Sequence record: MT446420.1 | Strand: one strand, 5' to 3' | DNA from: Escherichia virus TH54 | Length of the DNA: 64,000 nucleotides | Part shown: in pieces, positions 14,477 through 28,802 of the stretch | Numbering within the stretch: position 1 is the stretch's first letter | Layout of the letters: every line of letters begins with the position of its first letter | Made by a program: the position numbers and the translations under genes | Notes under the pieces: generated by a model | Told to the model about the DNA's origin: nothing | Database searches by the model: none | The model's input: the letters and a program-made list of their open reading frames with translations, nothing else

Positions 14477-14758
14477 TTAGTCGTTGACTCTATTATATGC
14501 CACATCTTCCAAAAGCAAATCCAGACGCTTATGATAAGAGAACACAAATCTCATTCGCCCATCTGGTTTAAACTTAGACATAAAGTGAACATAGATAAAC
14601 CCTTGCTCAACACATTCACGCCAAACCGGATGGTCTTTGGCTGGGTTAATATCAAACGAGTAATCATGATTCACATGACGAATAAACTGATTAACATGAC
14701 CATAATCCATGGTAGTAGTAGGACCATAATCAGAAATAGTATGAACGACAAACATCAA
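14477..14758 (-). CDS. hypothetical protein (30.1 position)
   Basis: 93 aa ORF between ligase and the HAD-like gene; tightly packed. Confidence 0.55.
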   Translation of the reverse strand: MMFVVHTISDYGPTTTMDYGHVNQFIRHVNHDYSFDINPAKDHPVWRECVEQGFIYVHFMSKFKPDGRMRFVFSYHKRLDLLLEDVAYNRVND

Positions 14759-15579
14759 TTACCCCCTTGGCCGCCGGTCGGTTGATTGTACCAATATTCA
14801 ATACCAGTACCCACACGCTGGCCATATTGATATGGATATGCTGGATTATAACCAGGAGTCCATGGTTGACCTGGTTGCCAGCCTTGTTGCATTTGTTGTT
14901 GAAGACGGCGAGTTTCACGAAACAGCTCTTCCAGTTTACGGAGTTCATCTGGGGTGAATTCTGGTTTGACCGGTTCATCTTTGTGTTTCAGTTTAAGCTG
15001 TCCAGCAACATCGTCCCAATTAAAAACTTTGGAAGCTGTTTTAGGAATAGCATCACGTTCGCCGCGGGCCATCCAATAAACAGGAACCTCAAGAATTTCA
15101 CTTGCATGGTCGCAATGGTGTGCAAGGTCATCAATATAACAAATGACATTATATTTGTCTTTTGCCTTCTGAAATAACTCCTCTTTAGAGGCTGTATGAC
15201 CACACATCATCACTTCTTTAAATGCCCCAGGGAACAAAGCATTCAGGTTGAATTGACGATTCAGACGAGCATCAATAGAATCACCCAGGGCTGTTACAGC
15301 CACAAAATCATATTGCTCTTTGAGGTTATTAATAACCCTTAATGCATCCGCATAAGGAGACAAATAGCGAATAAAGTCCGAACAGTTATATTTTTCAATT
15401 AACTGCGCGCCTAACTCTTCATCACAATTGAAGAGTTTACCAGGGGTCACAAATTTTTCATCCTGAATCATCTTAAGGATGTGTTCCAGGGGTAAATTAT
15501 ATTTTTGAGCGAAATAAGGCAAGCCAGACTGCCATGACAAACATACGCCATCAATATCTGTTAAAATAACGGGTTTCAT
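14755..15579 (-). CDS. HAD-superfamily phosphatase-like protein with low-complexity Q/P/Y/G-rich C-terminal tail
   Basis: N-terminal MKPVILTDIDGV matches the DxDG(T/V) HAD catalytic motif; C-terminal 50 aa are QQQMQQGWQPGQPWTPGYNPAYPYQYG... Confidence 0.6.
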   Translation of the reverse strand: MKPVILTDIDGVCLSWQSGLPYFAQKYNLPLEHILKMIQDEKFVTPGKLFNCDEELGAQLIEKYNCSDFIRYLSPYADALRVINNLKEQYDFVAVTALGDSIDARLNRQFNLNALFPGAFKEVMMCGHTASKEELFQKAKDKYNVICYIDDLAHHCDHASEILEVPVYWMARGERDAIPKTASKVFNWDDVAGQLKLKHKDEPVKPEFTPDELRKLEELFRETRRLQQQMQQGWQPGQPWTPGYNPAYPYQYGQRVGTGIEYWYNQPTGGQGGN

Positions 15580-22732: not shown

Positions 22733-23950
<1,218 letters not shown>

Positions 23951-23954
<4 letters not shown>

Positions 23955-24433
23955 ACACCAAGCTCCTTATAAAGTTCTTCGCGACAGGTTTTAAGGATTT
24001 TACCAGTTTCATAAGCTGCACTTTCAGAAACATCACCAAGTGCAGCAGCAGATTGCATTTGACCATGGCGTTTAGCCGCGTATTCAAAACTTTTCACCAA
24101 TTCACGAATACGTTCTTTTTCATTGTACTCTTCAATGAATTCAGGGTATTCCCAAACAGGTCGCATCATACGATACCAATGCTGAATAGTAATATAATTA
24201 CTTCCATCCAGATTAATAATTTGTGAAGGCTTAATAGCACCCGGAGCATAAAAAGTTACCTGTCTTACTACATCAATACCGTCCACCATAGCCCAAGCAA
24301 AATCAAAAGTTGCCTTCTTTTCAATTGGTGTACTTGCACAGGACCCTAATTTTAAGAGCTTTTGTAATGCAGGGGATTTAACACCTGAAATGTATTCAGG
24401 ATTAGCTACAAAAGAATTGTCACGTAAAGTCAT
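23951..24433 (-). CDS. hypothetical protein with its own early promoter
   Basis: Track ORF 23951-24469; ATG 24433/24439 follows GAGGAA SD and a GTGTACA-N17-TATAAT promoter. Confidence 0.55.
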
Positions 24434-24891: not shown

Positions 24892-25241
24892 TTGGTGAGC
24901 TCCTGGAAGTCCTGAGCAAACTTATCAAAGGACTGATTAATCTGTTTTTCAACTAATTTAGGCTTCGCTGCCACAACCTTAGTACGTTTTGCATCCGCAC
25001 GGAGTTTATCATTTTCCTTCTGCAGAAGTTCAACATATTCCTGACGCTCCTGGTCAAGGAGATTAATTTGATTAATCTGGTCTTTTACTGATTGCAGATT
25101 TTTCGCATTATCTTCTGCAACTTTGGTGACTTCCGCCACCGCTGTCTTGAGATTATCTACTTTTGCTTTTAGATAGAAACCACTACCAGCAGTTACTACC
25201 AGGGCTAGCATAAGCCCTGCGGTGAGATTACTTATTTGCAT
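24888..25241 (-). CDS. i-spanin (inner-membrane, Rz-like)
   Basis: N-terminal transmembrane helix followed by coiled-coil-like periplasmic domain; 117 aa; paired with the o-spanin. Confidence 0.7.
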   Translation of the reverse strand: MQISNLTAGLMLALVVTAGSGFYLKAKVDNLKTAVAEVTKVAEDNAKNLQSVKDQINQINLLDQERQEYVELLQKENDKLRADAKRTKVVAAKPKLVEKQINQSFDKFAQDFQELTK

Positions 25242-25735
25242 AACTTGATGATTACCTCAACAATATCATCCTGGGATAAACCATTCAGGAGGATGTGATT
25301 TGTACTGTCCGACGCTGAAATGCGGAACTGATTACCAACTTCATCCGCCATATCATCCTGGGTTAACACTGGGTGTTTAATCCCCAGGCGGTGTTGAAGT
25401 GTCAGGGGTTCAACCACAACATAACAAACACATCCATTGATATGTACATTAGGTTGGGTCTGGTTAATGAACACTTCTGCATCATATTTAACCAAATGGT
25501 TCTTTAAGAAGTCAACCATTTCAGGAACAGATTCATGCAGTGCTTCTTTCCGCTCTTCTGATTTTTTATCACGATATTCTTTTTGTTTTGCCTTCAACTT
25601 TTTATTGGAGGCGAGTTTTTTCCGCAGGTCAGTCATGAGACCAATTTTCTTGGTCCCTTTATAGACATAAATTCCGTCATGGCGGTCACCATATTCATTG
25701 ACAATCATTTCGTTTGAAATCAGTTGCATATCCAT
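25232..25735 (-). CDS. alc: Alc-like host transcription termination/shutoff protein (probable)
   Basis: Track ORF 25232-25837; ATG 25735 with GAGGAAAATATT SD gives 167 aa, equal to T4 Alc, at the T4 alc position; identity by position and size only. Confidence 0.5.
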   Translation of the reverse strand: MDMQLISNEMIVNEYGDRHDGIYVYKGTKKIGLMTDLRKKLASNKKLKAKQKEYRDKKSEERKEALHESVPEMVDFLKNHLVKYDAEVFINQTQPNVHINGCVCYVVVEPLTLQHRLGIKHPVLTQDDMADEVGNQFRISASDSTNHILLNGLSQDDIVEVIIKLCK

Positions 25736-25748
25736 AATATTTTCCTCA

Positions 25749-25982
25749 TTAGTAGCGGTTGTAACCTCTAGGACCAAAAGAGTTGGCACCCAGGCGCTCA
25801 TCTTTCTTTTTGGCTTTTGCTCTAAACCCAGAATCACTTGTTTGAGCTTTCAATTCTTTTAACAATTTGGCCTTCAGGTCAGTAATGAAACCAATCCGGC
25901 GGTCTCCCTTGTAGACATAGATTCCATCATTTCTGTCACCATATGCCTGTGTAACTCTGTCATTTGTAATTAAGTTTAACAT
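25749..25982 (-). CDS. truncated paralogue of the alc N-terminal region
   Basis: 77 aa; AYGDRNDGIYVYKGDRRIGFITDLKAKL parallels EYGDRHDGIYVYKGTKKIGLMTDLRKKL in the adjacent alc-like protein. Confidence 0.5.
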   Translation of the reverse strand: MLNLITNDRVTQAYGDRNDGIYVYKGDRRIGFITDLKAKLLKELKAQTSDSGFRAKAKKKDERLGANSFGPRGYNRY

Positions 25983-26053
25983 GTTTTGGTCCTCATCAGT
26001 AGTTGATGGAACCATTATGTATAGAAAGGAGGGGCTTGTACACCCCTTTTTTA

Positions 26054-27190
26054 TTATTCAGGAAGGATTACTTCCGCCTGGTAGTCCAACGGAATGTAAA
26101 GTTTATGATTTTTAAGGAAAACTTTATTGATTTGAGCAATCGTTTGTTCAGTTTCCTGTGGGCGTTGATAGGTGTTCATTAATACGGAGAACAATCCCGG
26201 GTATGGTTTACACAACTCTTGACCTTTAATCGCAAACTCGCGACGGTCTTTTCCTGCTAACTGTTTTTGTGCATCAAGCAACAGTCCAAGAGTGTTGGAC
26301 AGATAATCCAGATGTACAATGGTAAAGGCATTAACTTTTTCACGGGCGTAATCATCACCAGTAAACATGGCAATAACATCATCAGCCCCGCCAGCAACAA
26401 CAACTTCAAACAGACGCTCATTATTATTAATGGAGTCTTTGGTATGATGTAGAGCACAATACCATTCTGTTTTCAGCTTGAACTTCTGACCACTCGCCAG
26501 CTCATAGACGAAGCCTTCAATCTCTTTCATACCACGAACATTCTCAATGCTCGCCGGGTCATATGCTTCAACCAGGAAAGGACGGAGCGCAGCATCTTTG
26601 AACAATTCAGGATAAGGAATATATTCACCAGTTTCATTATGACGAACGTTCAGCAAAATCAGGTCACGTTCCTGATAAGGAAGAACAATGCGATTGGTTG
26701 GTGCAACATATTCCATATTGCAAGTATATCCAGCTTCAGTGATTTCAGTCACACGCGCCCTGAACGCTTCACGATGAGGTTGTTTAAACACCTGCAGAGC
26801 TTCTGCAGCTTGTGAGCTTTTGATTGACCCTTTGGATTTAAAGGCGATATTGGTCTGGTCCATATAAGTGGAAACCAAACTACCATCAGCTTTTGCAGTA
26901 ACCAGGACAACTTCATCAAGGTTAAGGTCCATGGTCATTGGGTTCTCACCCAGATTAAAAAATTTTTCCATAGGACGAGCAGCAATGCGAACTGGACCAT
27001 TGTCATCCATTTCAAACATAATGCCACGACACTCTAAAGCATCATCAAGGAGCCAATCGCTATAGGAAGCATAGTTATAGCTAAAGATGCGGAACTTAGT
27101 TTCAAATGGAGAAACAAAATCCGTATAGAAAAACTTACCTTTATCAGATTCGGCGCAAAGCTTCATTAAGTTATCATATAATTCAATCAT
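26054..27190 (-). CDS. rnlA: RNA ligase 1
   Basis: 378 aa; matches T4 Rnl1 blocks (IFSYNYASYSDWLL, ALECRGIMFEMD, KADGSLVSTY with lysine nucleotidyltransferase motif). Confidence 0.92.
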   Translation of the reverse strand: MIELYDNLMKLCAESDKGKFFYTDFVSPFETKFRIFSYNYASYSDWLLDDALECRGIMFEMDDNGPVRIAARPMEKFFNLGENPMTMDLNLDEVVLVTAKADGSLVSTYMDQTNIAFKSKGSIKSSQAAEALQVFKQPHREAFRARVTEITEAGYTCNMEYVAPTNRIVLPYQERDLILLNVRHNETGEYIPYPELFKDAALRPFLVEAYDPASIENVRGMKEIEGFVYELASGQKFKLKTEWYCALHHTKDSINNNERLFEVVVAGGADDVIAMFTGDDYAREKVNAFTIVHLDYLSNTLGLLLDAQKQLAGKDRREFAIKGQELCKPYPGLFSVLMNTYQRPQETEQTIAQINKVFLKNHKLYIPLDYQAEVILPE

Positions 27191-27597
27191 TTCTTCACCT
27201 TATGTTGGTAATTCCACGGGGGATTAAAAAGCTTGATGAACATCGGCTCTTCCAGAGACATAGTTTCGACTGACATCGTGCCAAGCTCATTGGTCATTGA
27301 CAGATTGAAACATTGTCGTGCATAGAATACCACCTTTTTGCCTTCTTGTAAAGCTTCATGTATCATCCGGGATTTGTTTGAATCACTCGTCTGTTCGATT
27401 CGGTTAATTGCAGTCCGGTAATAGTTGATACGCTTCTTAAGGTTGTTCGTCTTACCAATATACACTAGTTCATCATCAACTGAAATAGCATAGATAACAT
27501 TTTTCTTGTTTGCGAGAGTAAGGATAGGGATTTTACCATCGACTAACTCCAACTCCGCGTATTTTATAAAACTGTATTCGTCAGCGATTTGTTTCAT
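27187..27597 (-). CDS. denA: endonuclease II (GIY-YIG family)
   Basis: Track start is a TTG; ATG 27597 gives 136 aa as in T4 DenA; GIY-YIG-like VYIGKT...RINYY and close match to T4 DenA. Confidence 0.85.
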   Translation of the reverse strand: MKQIADEYSFIKYAELELVDGKIPILTLANKKNVIYAISVDDELVYIGKTNNLKKRINYYRTAINRIEQTSDSNKSRMIHEALQEGKKVVFYARQCFNLSMTNELGTMSVETMSLEEPMFIKLFNPPWNYQHKVKK

Positions 27598-27601
27598 AGA
27601 C

Positions 27602-27625
27602 AAAAAGGGCCGAAGCCCTTTCCTT
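27602..27625 (-). terminator. hairpin terminator after nrdB
   Basis: GGGCC-GAAG-CCC stem-loop followed by a T-run on the minus strand right at the nrdB stop. Confidence 0.6.
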
Positions 27626-28802
27626 ATAGATATTTACGGAAACCAGCAAGAACGTTCTCATCGACGTCATTGTCAATCTGGGCTACCAGGTAAGCAGACA
27701 ACTCAACTTCTTGCGGTGCTGATTGCACATTATCAGAGTTAAGATATTCGCGAATCCATGGAATCGGGTGCTTAGTAGATTCTAACACGATTTCACACGG
27801 TAGACCGCATTGCTTCATACGAGAAACCGTCAGGTAATCGATGAACCGGTTAAGAATCTCGACGCTCAACCCAGGGAGTCCACCATCTTTAAACAGATGT
27901 ACGGCCCATTCTTTTTCCTGGCGATTAACTTCCATGAAAATGGCTGCGGCTTCTGCTTCACATTCATGTGCGATTTTAACCCATTCGTCACCGTCAGTAC
28001 CAGTCTGCAACTGACGAAGAATATATTGGGTCCCCTTAAGGTGGAGCTGTTCATCACGGGCGATGAACTTCATTATCTTCGCATTGCCTTCCATGATTTC
28101 CATGTTCTTATGGAAGTTGAAAGTACAAGCAAAAGATACATAAAAACGAATGGCTTCCAGGGCATTAATGACATGCAGGCAGAGATAAAGAGACTTCATC
28201 AATGCTCGTTTGGCGATAGATTCTTGTTTGATAGCTCGTTCCAAACGTTCGTCCGCTTCGGGAGTTTCTTTGGCCAGTTCAACAAAAGCAATCTGGTTTT
28301 GCCATTGACGAGTTTTATTCAGAACATCATCATAGTAATGACCGATGGATTCTGCGCGCTTCATGATTGCATCATCTAACAGGATTTCGTCGAATACCTT
28401 CGCCGGGTCCGTATAAAGATTTCGCATTATGTGCGTATAAGAACGAGAGTGAATTGTCTCGCTGAATGTCCAGGTCTGAATCCATGTATCAAGACTTGGG
28501 TCAGAAACTAATGCGGCTAATGCTGCAGCTGGAGCACGACCCTGGATACTATCCAGAAGTGATTGGTATTTCAGGTTGTTGGTAAAAATATTTTGTTGAT
28601 GTTCAGGAAGCTTATTAAATTGGGCTCCGTCCATCATCAGGTTTACTTCCTCTGGACGCCAGAAGAATGATAATTGCTTTTCTGTTAATTCTTCGAAAAC
28701 TTTATGACGCTGGATATCATAACGGGCAATCCCCAATCCTGAACCAAAAAACATAGGCTCGGCTAAAACATCCACCGGAGTGGTATTAAAAACTGTACTC
28801 AT
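27624..28802 (-). CDS. nrdB: ribonucleotide reductase small subunit (class Ia, beta)
   Basis: 392 aa continuous ORF with R2-type diiron/tyrosyl radical architecture; no intron interruption. Confidence 0.93.
   Translation of the reverse strand: MSTVFNTTPVDVLAEPMFFGSGLGIARYDIQRHKVFEELTEKQLSFFWRPEEVNLMMDGAQFNKLPEHQQNIFTNNLKYQSLLDSIQGRAPAAALAALVSDPSLDTWIQTWTFSETIHSRSYTHIMRNLYTDPAKVFDEILLDDAIMKRAESIGHYYDDVLNKTRQWQNQIAFVELAKETPEADERLERAIKQESIAKRALMKSLYLCLHVINALEAIRFYVSFACTFNFHKNMEIMEGNAKIMKFIARDEQLHLKGTQYILRQLQTGTDGDEWVKIAHECEAEAAAIFMEVNRQEKEWAVHLFKDGGLPGLSVEILNRFIDYLTVSRMKQCGLPCEIVLESTKHPIPWIREYLNSDNVQSAPQEVELSAYLVAQIDNDVDENVLAGFRKYL

Follow-up and report, generated by a model that had tools for sequence, protein, structure and literature searches.

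The alcB-alcA locus

We analyzed a 64,000-nucleotide (nt) stretch of DNA from Escherichia virus TH54 (sequence record MT446420.1), further referred to as the window. The study concerns a short gene that repeats the 5' part of alc, the gene of a classic host-shutoff factor. This short gene, alcB, occupies positions 25749..25982 on the minus strand. It is an open reading frame (ORF) of 234 nt, comprising 77 codons and a TAA stop codon at 25749-25751, as identified from the ORF list and the translation. Directly downstream of it lies alcA (25232..25735, minus strand), encoding a full-length Alc of 167 amino acids (aa). A first-pass annotation made from the sequence alone had placed a 77-aa ORF directly upstream of an alc-like gene, and its coordinates proved to be exact. 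The names alcB for the short gene and alcA for the full-length one were adopted from the record of Shigella phage SP18.

All genes of the block are encoded on the minus strand in the order nrdB-denA-rnlA-alcB-alcA-pseT.3-pseT.2. Hence alcB has the rnlA-to-pseT.3 placement that is typical of alc in T4-like genomes. Its upstream neighbor is rnlA (RNA ligase 1; 26054..27190, minus strand), identified from annotated relatives and metagenomic contigs. It is followed in the upstream direction by denA (27187-27603) and nrdB (27624-28802), both on the minus strand.

Two parts of the AlcB protein are considered below. The N-terminal module (N module, residues 1-33, MLNLITNDRVTQAYGDRNDGIYVYKGDRRIGFI; 25884..25982, minus strand) is predicted from the translation and the AlphaFold2 (AF2) model to form a short helix and a small beta-hairpin. 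The C-terminal tail motif RLGANSFGPRGYNRY (residues 63-77; 25752..25796, minus strand) is predicted to be disordered, with an AF2 predicted local distance difference test (pLDDT) score <50. Between the two there is a short segment of basic character. In AlcA, the N module (residues 1-33) is followed by a basic helix (~34-63) and an acidic alpha/beta C-terminal domain (64-167).

The Shine-Dalgarno (SD) sequence of alcB, GAGGA, is located at 25990..25994 (minus strand), 8 nt 5' of the ATG, and is kept in the alignment of 14 Gaprivervirus genomes. Further upstream there is a promoter-like element TGTACA-17-CATAAT (26014..26042, minus strand), a consensus match whose function is presumed. A scan also yielded a terminator-like hairpin AGGGGTGTACAAGCCCCT (26030..26047, minus strand) directly 3' of the rnlA stop codon, overlapping the −35-like hexamer. 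The hairpin is G+C-rich, and no such hairpin is found at that place in phages T2, JS98 and VR5. The SD sequence of alcA, also GAGGA, is at 25743..25747 (minus strand); the TAA of alcB is one base upstream of it and 13 nt from the alcA ATG.

The gene is present in public annotation. In the SP18 record the pair has been annotated as alca/alcb since 2010, the alcb note reading 'similar to N-terminal region of bacteriophage JS98 Alc'. In the record of phage VR7 the same gene is ORF243c. The window protein is 93–99% identical to both and is encoded at the same position. The PHROGs family phrog_17715 (77 positions) is dedicated to AlcB, residues 1-77 matching profile positions 1-77 with E 2.8e-52. 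All three entries represent the same gene as the window alcB with no structural difference, and their labels ('inhibitor of host transcription') are similarity-based annotation. Since these records already list alcB, the bare observation of the duplication is not new. New here is that alcB evolves under selection, has a conserved tail motif of its own, predates the genus and is locked to alcA. No discussion of alcB was found in the literature searched.

Homology of AlcB to Alc

AlcB and AlcA share 28 identical residues of 62 (45%, E 1e-16; BLASTP with composition-adjusted statistics). AlcB also matches positions 3-61 of the 177-position Pfam ALC profile (PF17527) with E 2.7e-10, above the curated cut-off. 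In a comparison with residues 3-55 of the T2 Alc its identity is 53% over 53 aa (E 2e-18).

The first-pass assignment of the 167-aa protein to Alc had relied on gene position and length. AlcA matches the Pfam ALC profile end-to-end (residues 1-166 of 167 vs profile positions 1-176, E 6.5e-49) and aligns with the T2 Alc without gaps at 55% identity over 166 aa (E 1e-69). By its sequence, the 167-aa protein is thus confirmed as a true Alc. An end-to-end profile match (~165–170 aa) exists for AlcA and not for AlcB. With the 167-aa protein aligning to Alc along its whole length and the similarity of the short one being highly significant, the finding is real, and the core first-pass reading, according to which the ORF duplicates the N-terminal region of alc in truncated form, is correct.

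The invariant residues of the Alc N module (I6, G16, D20-G21-I22, G32 and D36-L37 in AlcA numbering) are all kept in AlcB, as well as in the AlcB orthologues on contigs L018 and L028 described in the next section. The N module of AlcB is 61% identical to that of T4-type Alc, i.e. as close to it as the module of AlcA itself. The motifs of the Alc C-terminal domain (VFINxTQPNVHING, HRLGI and NGLSxDDIVExIxKLC) are absent from AlcB, which terminates in an unrelated motif at residue 77.

Two details of the first-pass description need correction. The C-terminus of the short protein had been called unrelated to Alc. This holds for residues 63-77, which form a motif of their own conserved in distant orthologues, but for residues 38-63 there is still a weak alignment to the Alc basic linker. 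The shared motif given as TDL.KKL is correct for AlcA (TDLRKKL), but the 77-aa protein reads TDLKAKL.

Compared with T4 Alc (PF17527; phrog_1253), AlcB shares the N-terminal ~45–60 residues, the rnlA-alc-pseT.3 block, the type of early-promoter-like region and the SD sequence. It differs in length (77 aa vs ~167 aa), in lacking the KQKEY motif and residues 64-167, in having its own C-terminal motif, and in always residing beside a full-length Alc. The gene is a variant of the known Alc family with a putative function.

Phylogenetic distribution of alcB

The window region shares 99.5% identity with Escherichia virus TH57 and 92–99% with 33 records. Those of the 33 that have a genus-level taxonomy line belong to Gaprivervirus (Straboviridae, Tevenvirinae). 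All 33 matching phage records carry alcB. A tblastn search of 50,697 phage records retrieved full-length alcB from only 33 of them, the ~760 other matches being N-termini of ordinary alc genes. Among 5.8 billion proteins AlcB forms only 2 clusters, and a profile search of 1.84 billion representatives yielded 33 family members.

Two additional lineages came from the profile search and contig look-ups. In the first, the metagenomic contig L018 encodes a 78-aa AlcB (P0042) between the 3' end of rnlA and a full alc. The second was reached via P0006, the closest relative of AlcA (75% identical), whose contigs L028 and L029 carry a 77-aa ALC ORF in the alcB position. The check for the fragment in related phages, proposed along with the first-pass annotation, therefore yielded 33 phage records and two metagenomic lineages.

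The alc lineages P0007 and P0008 (63% and 60% identical to AlcA, respectively) have no alcB, rnlA being directly followed by alc. The same arrangement is seen in Dhakavirus (JS98, VR5) and Tequatrovirus (T2), and no T4-like genus other than Gaprivervirus has alcB. Scans of metagenome contigs and IMG/VR retrieved only Gaprivervirus-type copies of alcB and no further lineage. Since alcB is restricted to Gaprivervirus, L018 and L028/L029 and absent from P0007 and P0008, it marks a small clade comprising Gaprivervirus and two uncultured sister lineages. In all lineages bearing it, the gene has the same rnlA-alcB-alc position and a length of 77–78 aa, and AlcB was seen only alongside an alcA-type full-length alc. 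The identity between the three lineages is 45–48% for AlcB and 76–80% for AlcA.

Selection on alcB and the conserved tail

In 14 of 14 Gaprivervirus genomes alcB contains 77 codons with no frameshift. The mean pairwise ratio of non-synonymous to synonymous polymorphism (pN/pS) equals 0.12 for alcB and 0.118 for alcA. The variable sites of alcB include 17 synonymous and 7 non-synonymous ones, given a neutral expectation of ~22% synonymous (P=3.5e-7). In codons 57-77, 10 of 10 variable sites are synonymous (P=2e-7), with one AGA -> CGG arginine change.

The tail motif R.G.NSFGP...N[KR][FY]-stop, as defined in this analysis from the three lineages, is invariant in them (window, RLGANSFGPRGYNRY; L018, RLGRNSFGPDGLNKF; L028/L029, RHGANSFGPGTENKF). 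Also invariant are the N module pattern NLI..D....YG...DGIY..KG..R.GF..DL and a GF pair. The fixed length, the pN/pS of 0.12, the excess of synonymous sites (P=3.5e-7) and the conserved tail motif exclude a pseudogene or a decaying remnant. The first-pass suggestion of a remnant of duplication is thus right as to the origin of alcB but not as to its present state, given that the gene is intact, evolves under purifying selection in 14 genomes and retains the tail motif in two further lineages. A role as a decoy or regulatory fragment, also proposed in the first pass, may apply.

Polymorphism in alcA is unevenly distributed among the same 14 genomes. Codons 1-62 (25550-25735 in the window, minus strand) are represented by two diverged haplotypes with synonymous polymorphism (pS) of 0.33. 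Past these codons the genomes hardly differ (pS 0.064), most of them having no amino-acid change, the pN/pS in codons 63-167 being 0.026. This pattern looks like a recombination tract ending within the gene. Gene conversion between alcA and alcB was considered as the source of the haplotypes; by eye, neither of them is consistently nearer to alcB.

Probable co-expression of alcB and alcA

The stop codon of alcB lies in or beside the ribosome-binding site of alcA in every lineage. In the VR7 group, the TAA is lost through a deletion of 3 nt, and the frame ends at the TGA of TGAGGA, yielding a protein that terminates with NRY-stop; as a result, the length of AlcB stays at 77 aa. The alcB genes of L018, L028 and L029 likewise stop on TGAGGA. 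No promoter-like site was found between alcB and alcA by the consensus scan and the intergenic comparison. From the sequence we infer that AlcB and AlcA would be produced from one early transcript. Formation of an AlcB-AlcA fusion by read-through was rejected, because the distance from the alcB ATG to the alcA ATG (247 nt) is not a multiple of 3 and the TAA is followed by a TGA.

The overlap of the alcB stop codon with the alcA ribosome-binding site suggests a model in which the peptide is irrelevant, alcB being a leftover kept for the sake of translation that sets alcA expression (as an upstream ORF or via coupling), or simply decaying. Also consistent with it are the very narrow distribution (33 of 50,697 phage records, 2 clusters in 5.8 billion proteins) and one frameshifted variant, P0002 (75 aa, from one 9.3-kb ENA metagenome contig), which is identical to the window AlcB for 55 residues and is then frameshifted twice. 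The constraint on alcB acts, however, at the amino-acid level, as demonstrated by the synonymous excess, and the length is fixed at 77–78 aa; the N module and the tail motif are conserved at an overall identity of 45–48%; the alcA SD sequence is free of pairing, and shuffled sequences fold at least as well as the region does. We consider this model very unlikely.

Origin of the duplication

In the most parsimonious scenario, alcB would have arisen by partial tandem duplication of the alc 5' end, the duplicated unit of ~247 nt comprising the translation-initiation region and ~72 codons. The upstream copy would have kept the ancestral promoter-like region and would have been cut off inside the first helix of the C-terminal domain. 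The same sequence, CTACTRATGAGGA, precedes both the alcB ATG and the alcA ATG. The spacers between rnlA and alc of T2, JS98 and VR5 contain a T4-early-type element GTTTACA-18-TATAGT. Its counterpart in the window, GTGTACAAG-18-CATAAT, has the spacing and the flanking bases of T2 and is located 5' of alcB, not of alcA. The SD sequence of alcA together with its spacer (TGAGGAAAATATT) is identical to that of the alcB-less lineages P0007 and P0008.

At the other end of the unit, N-S-F-G-P of AlcB is collinear with E-S-V-P of Alc (codons 68-71). The tail of the window alcB resembles its own upstream untranslated region (UTR), with a score of 11 vs 3.2 ± 1.5 for shuffled sequences; those of L018 and L028 do not. 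For the junction, the microhomology ATGGTT, shared by the 5' UTR and alc codons 73-74, was considered, as was a UTR origin of the last AlcB codons, both being suggestive at best. A junction in the ATGGTT frame would have yielded an in-frame fusion, and the exact junction could not be rebuilt from sequence comparison. An attempt to date the duplication by a tree of N modules was abandoned, as the tree was unresolved (bootstrap 0.36 for AlcB monophyly and 0.015 for AlcA + AlcB). For this reason, AlcB monophyly rests on synteny and the tail motif.

In L019 (2894-3431; Logan SRR10769897_2867), a T4-like contig that is more distant, alc is broken by a linker frameshift into two ORFs, one of 61 aa with the N module and one of 111 aa with the C domain. 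Only one such contig is known, and either a naturally split gene or a mistake of assembly may account for it. In P0055 (175 aa) and P0056 (153 aa), the Alc N module and the basic helix are fused to C-terminal sequence unrelated to Alc, which suggests that the N module is able to evolve as a unit of its own. The adjacent Soc genes annotated in SP18, soca and socb (L017 592-1057; record 14591-15056), are a further case of a small gene duplicated in tandem in the genus.

Predicted structure and possible function of AlcB

In the AF2 model of AlcA (pLDDT 92), residues 8-15 are helical, 23-33 form a beta-hairpin, 34-80 a single long helix and 87-166 an alpha/beta domain. In the model of AlcB, the pLDDT is ~90 at residues 11-40, and the secondary structure is the same as in AlcA 1-33. 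The helix of AlcB loses confidence past residue ~50, and the tail is disordered. The calculated charge of AlcB is +5.7 to +7.5 (isoelectric point 10), the protein being strongly basic in all lineages; it equals +6.6 for AlcA 1-63 and −7.7 for AlcA 64-167. No solved structure of any Alc relative was found. Homology of the Alc C-terminal domain to T4 MotA was considered and rejected, as there is only a fold resemblance (hhalign probability 0.16%). A PRC-barrel identity for AlcB, following a label in the record of phage EAWsc9, was rejected likewise, with no Pfam match and no fold match.

Alc terminates transcription on DNA containing cytosine, not on DNA containing hydroxymethylcytosine (PMC2988021). 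Dispensable region I of the RNA polymerase beta subunit is genetically needed for its action, and mutations in this region block Alc. Neither RNA nor DNA binding by Alc was seen, and the mechanism was reported as unresolved (PMC2988021).

In sequence, the N module of AlcB does not leave the range spanned by true Alc orthologues, and hence the same binding partner is expected. We give about an even chance to the reading in which AlcB would be a stand-alone docking module for the site bound by the Alc N module, most likely on the host RNA polymerase, and thereby an accessory or modulator of Alc. The gene alcB is presumably a real one, translated early in infection. The target of its N module would be that of the Alc N module, in all likelihood the host RNA polymerase. 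AlcB would share the docking site with AlcA or compete for it, its tail adding a contact that Alc lacks. Having no Alc C-terminal domain, it would modulate the Alc-dependent shut-off of host transcription.

Such an arrangement is analogous to truncated-paralogue 'microproteins', for example, Id versus the basic helix-loop-helix (bHLH) factors, in which the retained module is a known dimerization domain and a dominant-negative effect was shown. AlcB would resemble them in being a short paralogue with one module of two and no presumed effector domain, expressed beside the full-length form. It differs in having gained a conserved motif of its own, and the analogy is functional rather than one of family.

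Several observations weigh against the docking reading. The conserved linker motif KQKEY is absent from AlcB, and between lineages AlcB evolves faster than AlcA (45–48% vs 76–80% identity). In L018 and L028, AlcB is rich in glycine and proline after residue ~46; hence only ~45 residues are truly shared, that is, the N module and a short helix. The N module might just as well serve for self-association or for contact with nucleic acid. The promoter was called by its match to a consensus, and matches of this kind are not enriched in the region (10 found vs 7.7 expected). No RNA structure coupling alcB to the alcA start was seen at 25700-25830 (minus strand), where z equals 0.37 and the alcA SD sequence is unpaired. 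P0002 is a damaged copy of alcB, although the sole one seen.

The possible self-association role of the N module leads to a rather unlikely alternative, in which AlcB is an Alc-binding regulator. The N module and the start of the helix would then be the element of Alc self-association, and AlcB would enter mixed complexes with AlcA as a dominant-negative or specificity subunit, altering the activity of AlcA or how well it distinguishes modified cytosine from unmodified. AlcB retains precisely the portion of Alc located before the effector-like C-terminal domain, is found only together with alcA-type alc, and has an adjacent gene with probably stoichiometrically linked expression, as fits a partner protein. 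Moreover, the described alcB phages were reported to lack dCMP hydroxymethylase yet to have alc (PMC8056088, PMC12115623). On the other hand, the AF2 monomer of AlcA is confident alone, with no sign that Alc oligomerizes, and the N-terminal variants of AlcB and AlcA do not co-vary across the 14 genomes. A pure antagonist made from the shared message, 5' of alcA, would counteract a protein that is itself very strongly constrained; a pure anti-Alc role seems unlikely because the C-terminal domain of AlcA is almost frozen (codons 63-167, pN/pS 0.026).

One more reading, of similarly low probability, gives AlcB a new job unrelated to Alc. AlcB would be a small basic protein whose N module and conserved tail bind some other target (nucleic acid or another host protein), and its adjacency to alc would be a historical accident. 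The invariant tail motif is private to AlcB, the protein is strongly basic in all lineages, it diverges faster than AlcA and has lost KQKEY, and the Alc N module is also found fused to unrelated C-terminal sequence in P0055 and P0056. The 61% identity of its N module to that of T4-type Alc suggests, in contrast, the same partner as that of Alc, and the tight linkage and the overlap of the alcB stop with the alcA SD sequence are kept in three lineages.

As a natural, selectively maintained protein consisting of the Alc N module without the other half, AlcB is a ready-made reagent that could help to assign docking on RNA polymerase and the actual work to the one or the other half of Alc. The scope of this is limited, as alcB is already annotated and confined to one small clade.

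DNA modification context

Gaprivervirus is reported to be the only Tevenvirinae genus lacking dCMP hydroxymethylase, and to keep alc, denA, denB, ndd and dCTPase (PMC8056088, PMC12115623). The authors of these studies argue that Gaprivervirus DNA must carry an unknown base (PMC8056088, PMC12115623). The genus-wide absence of gene 42 is taken from these two papers; our check covered the SP18 uvsX-imm locus (14–36 kb) and the window. In SP18, neither gene 42 nor beta-gt was found between uvsX and imm, and alpha-gt was not found between genes 47 and 55. T2 gp42 had no match in the 22-kb SP18 stretch or in the window. In the uvsX-imm locus of SP18 (L017 9131-10027; record 23130-24026), two hypothetical ORFs of 176 and 47 aa with no Pfam match take the place where T2 has beta-gt and gene 42.

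In the phage collection searched by tblastn, the annotated proteins of Mosigvirus type that occupy the gene 42 position are only ~25% identical to T2 gp42. At such identity a collection-wide tblastn is uninformative, and dCMP hydroxymethylase homologues of T4-like genomes can be overlooked or wrongly labelled in simple similarity searches.

The presence of alcB and the lack of dCMP hydroxymethylase are a single-lineage co-occurrence, which is not evidence of a link. A long shot, less probable than either of the two alternatives discussed in the previous section, is that AlcB and AlcA constitute a two-component Alc system that evolved in a T4-like clade after hydroxymethylcytosine had been abandoned. 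As dCMP hydroxymethylase is missing and alc, denB and dCTPase are kept, Alc would have to spare a genome of different construction. The action of Alc on RNA polymerase would be retuned or timed by the stand-alone N module and its NSFGP tail, so that host DNA is shut off and phage DNA is read. If this were true, AlcB would be a natural dissection of Alc into docking and effector parts, and would allow a direct approach to a 30-year-old problem, the sensing of cytosine modification by Alc. Given that Gaprivervirus is reported to have no dCMP hydroxymethylase but to have enzymes attacking cytosine-containing DNA, the alcB/alcA pair is an obvious place to look once the DNA chemistry is worked out.

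Annotation of the locus in related records

Annotation of the locus varies between records. In L010 and L012, alcA is given as 189 aa, and in some records it starts at an upstream GTG overlapping alcB. In L011 alcB is annotated as 88 aa, and in one record its start is an upstream ATG within the promoter-like −10 element. In the record of phage 212 (L009), product names are displaced by one gene, and alcB is labelled RNA ligase.
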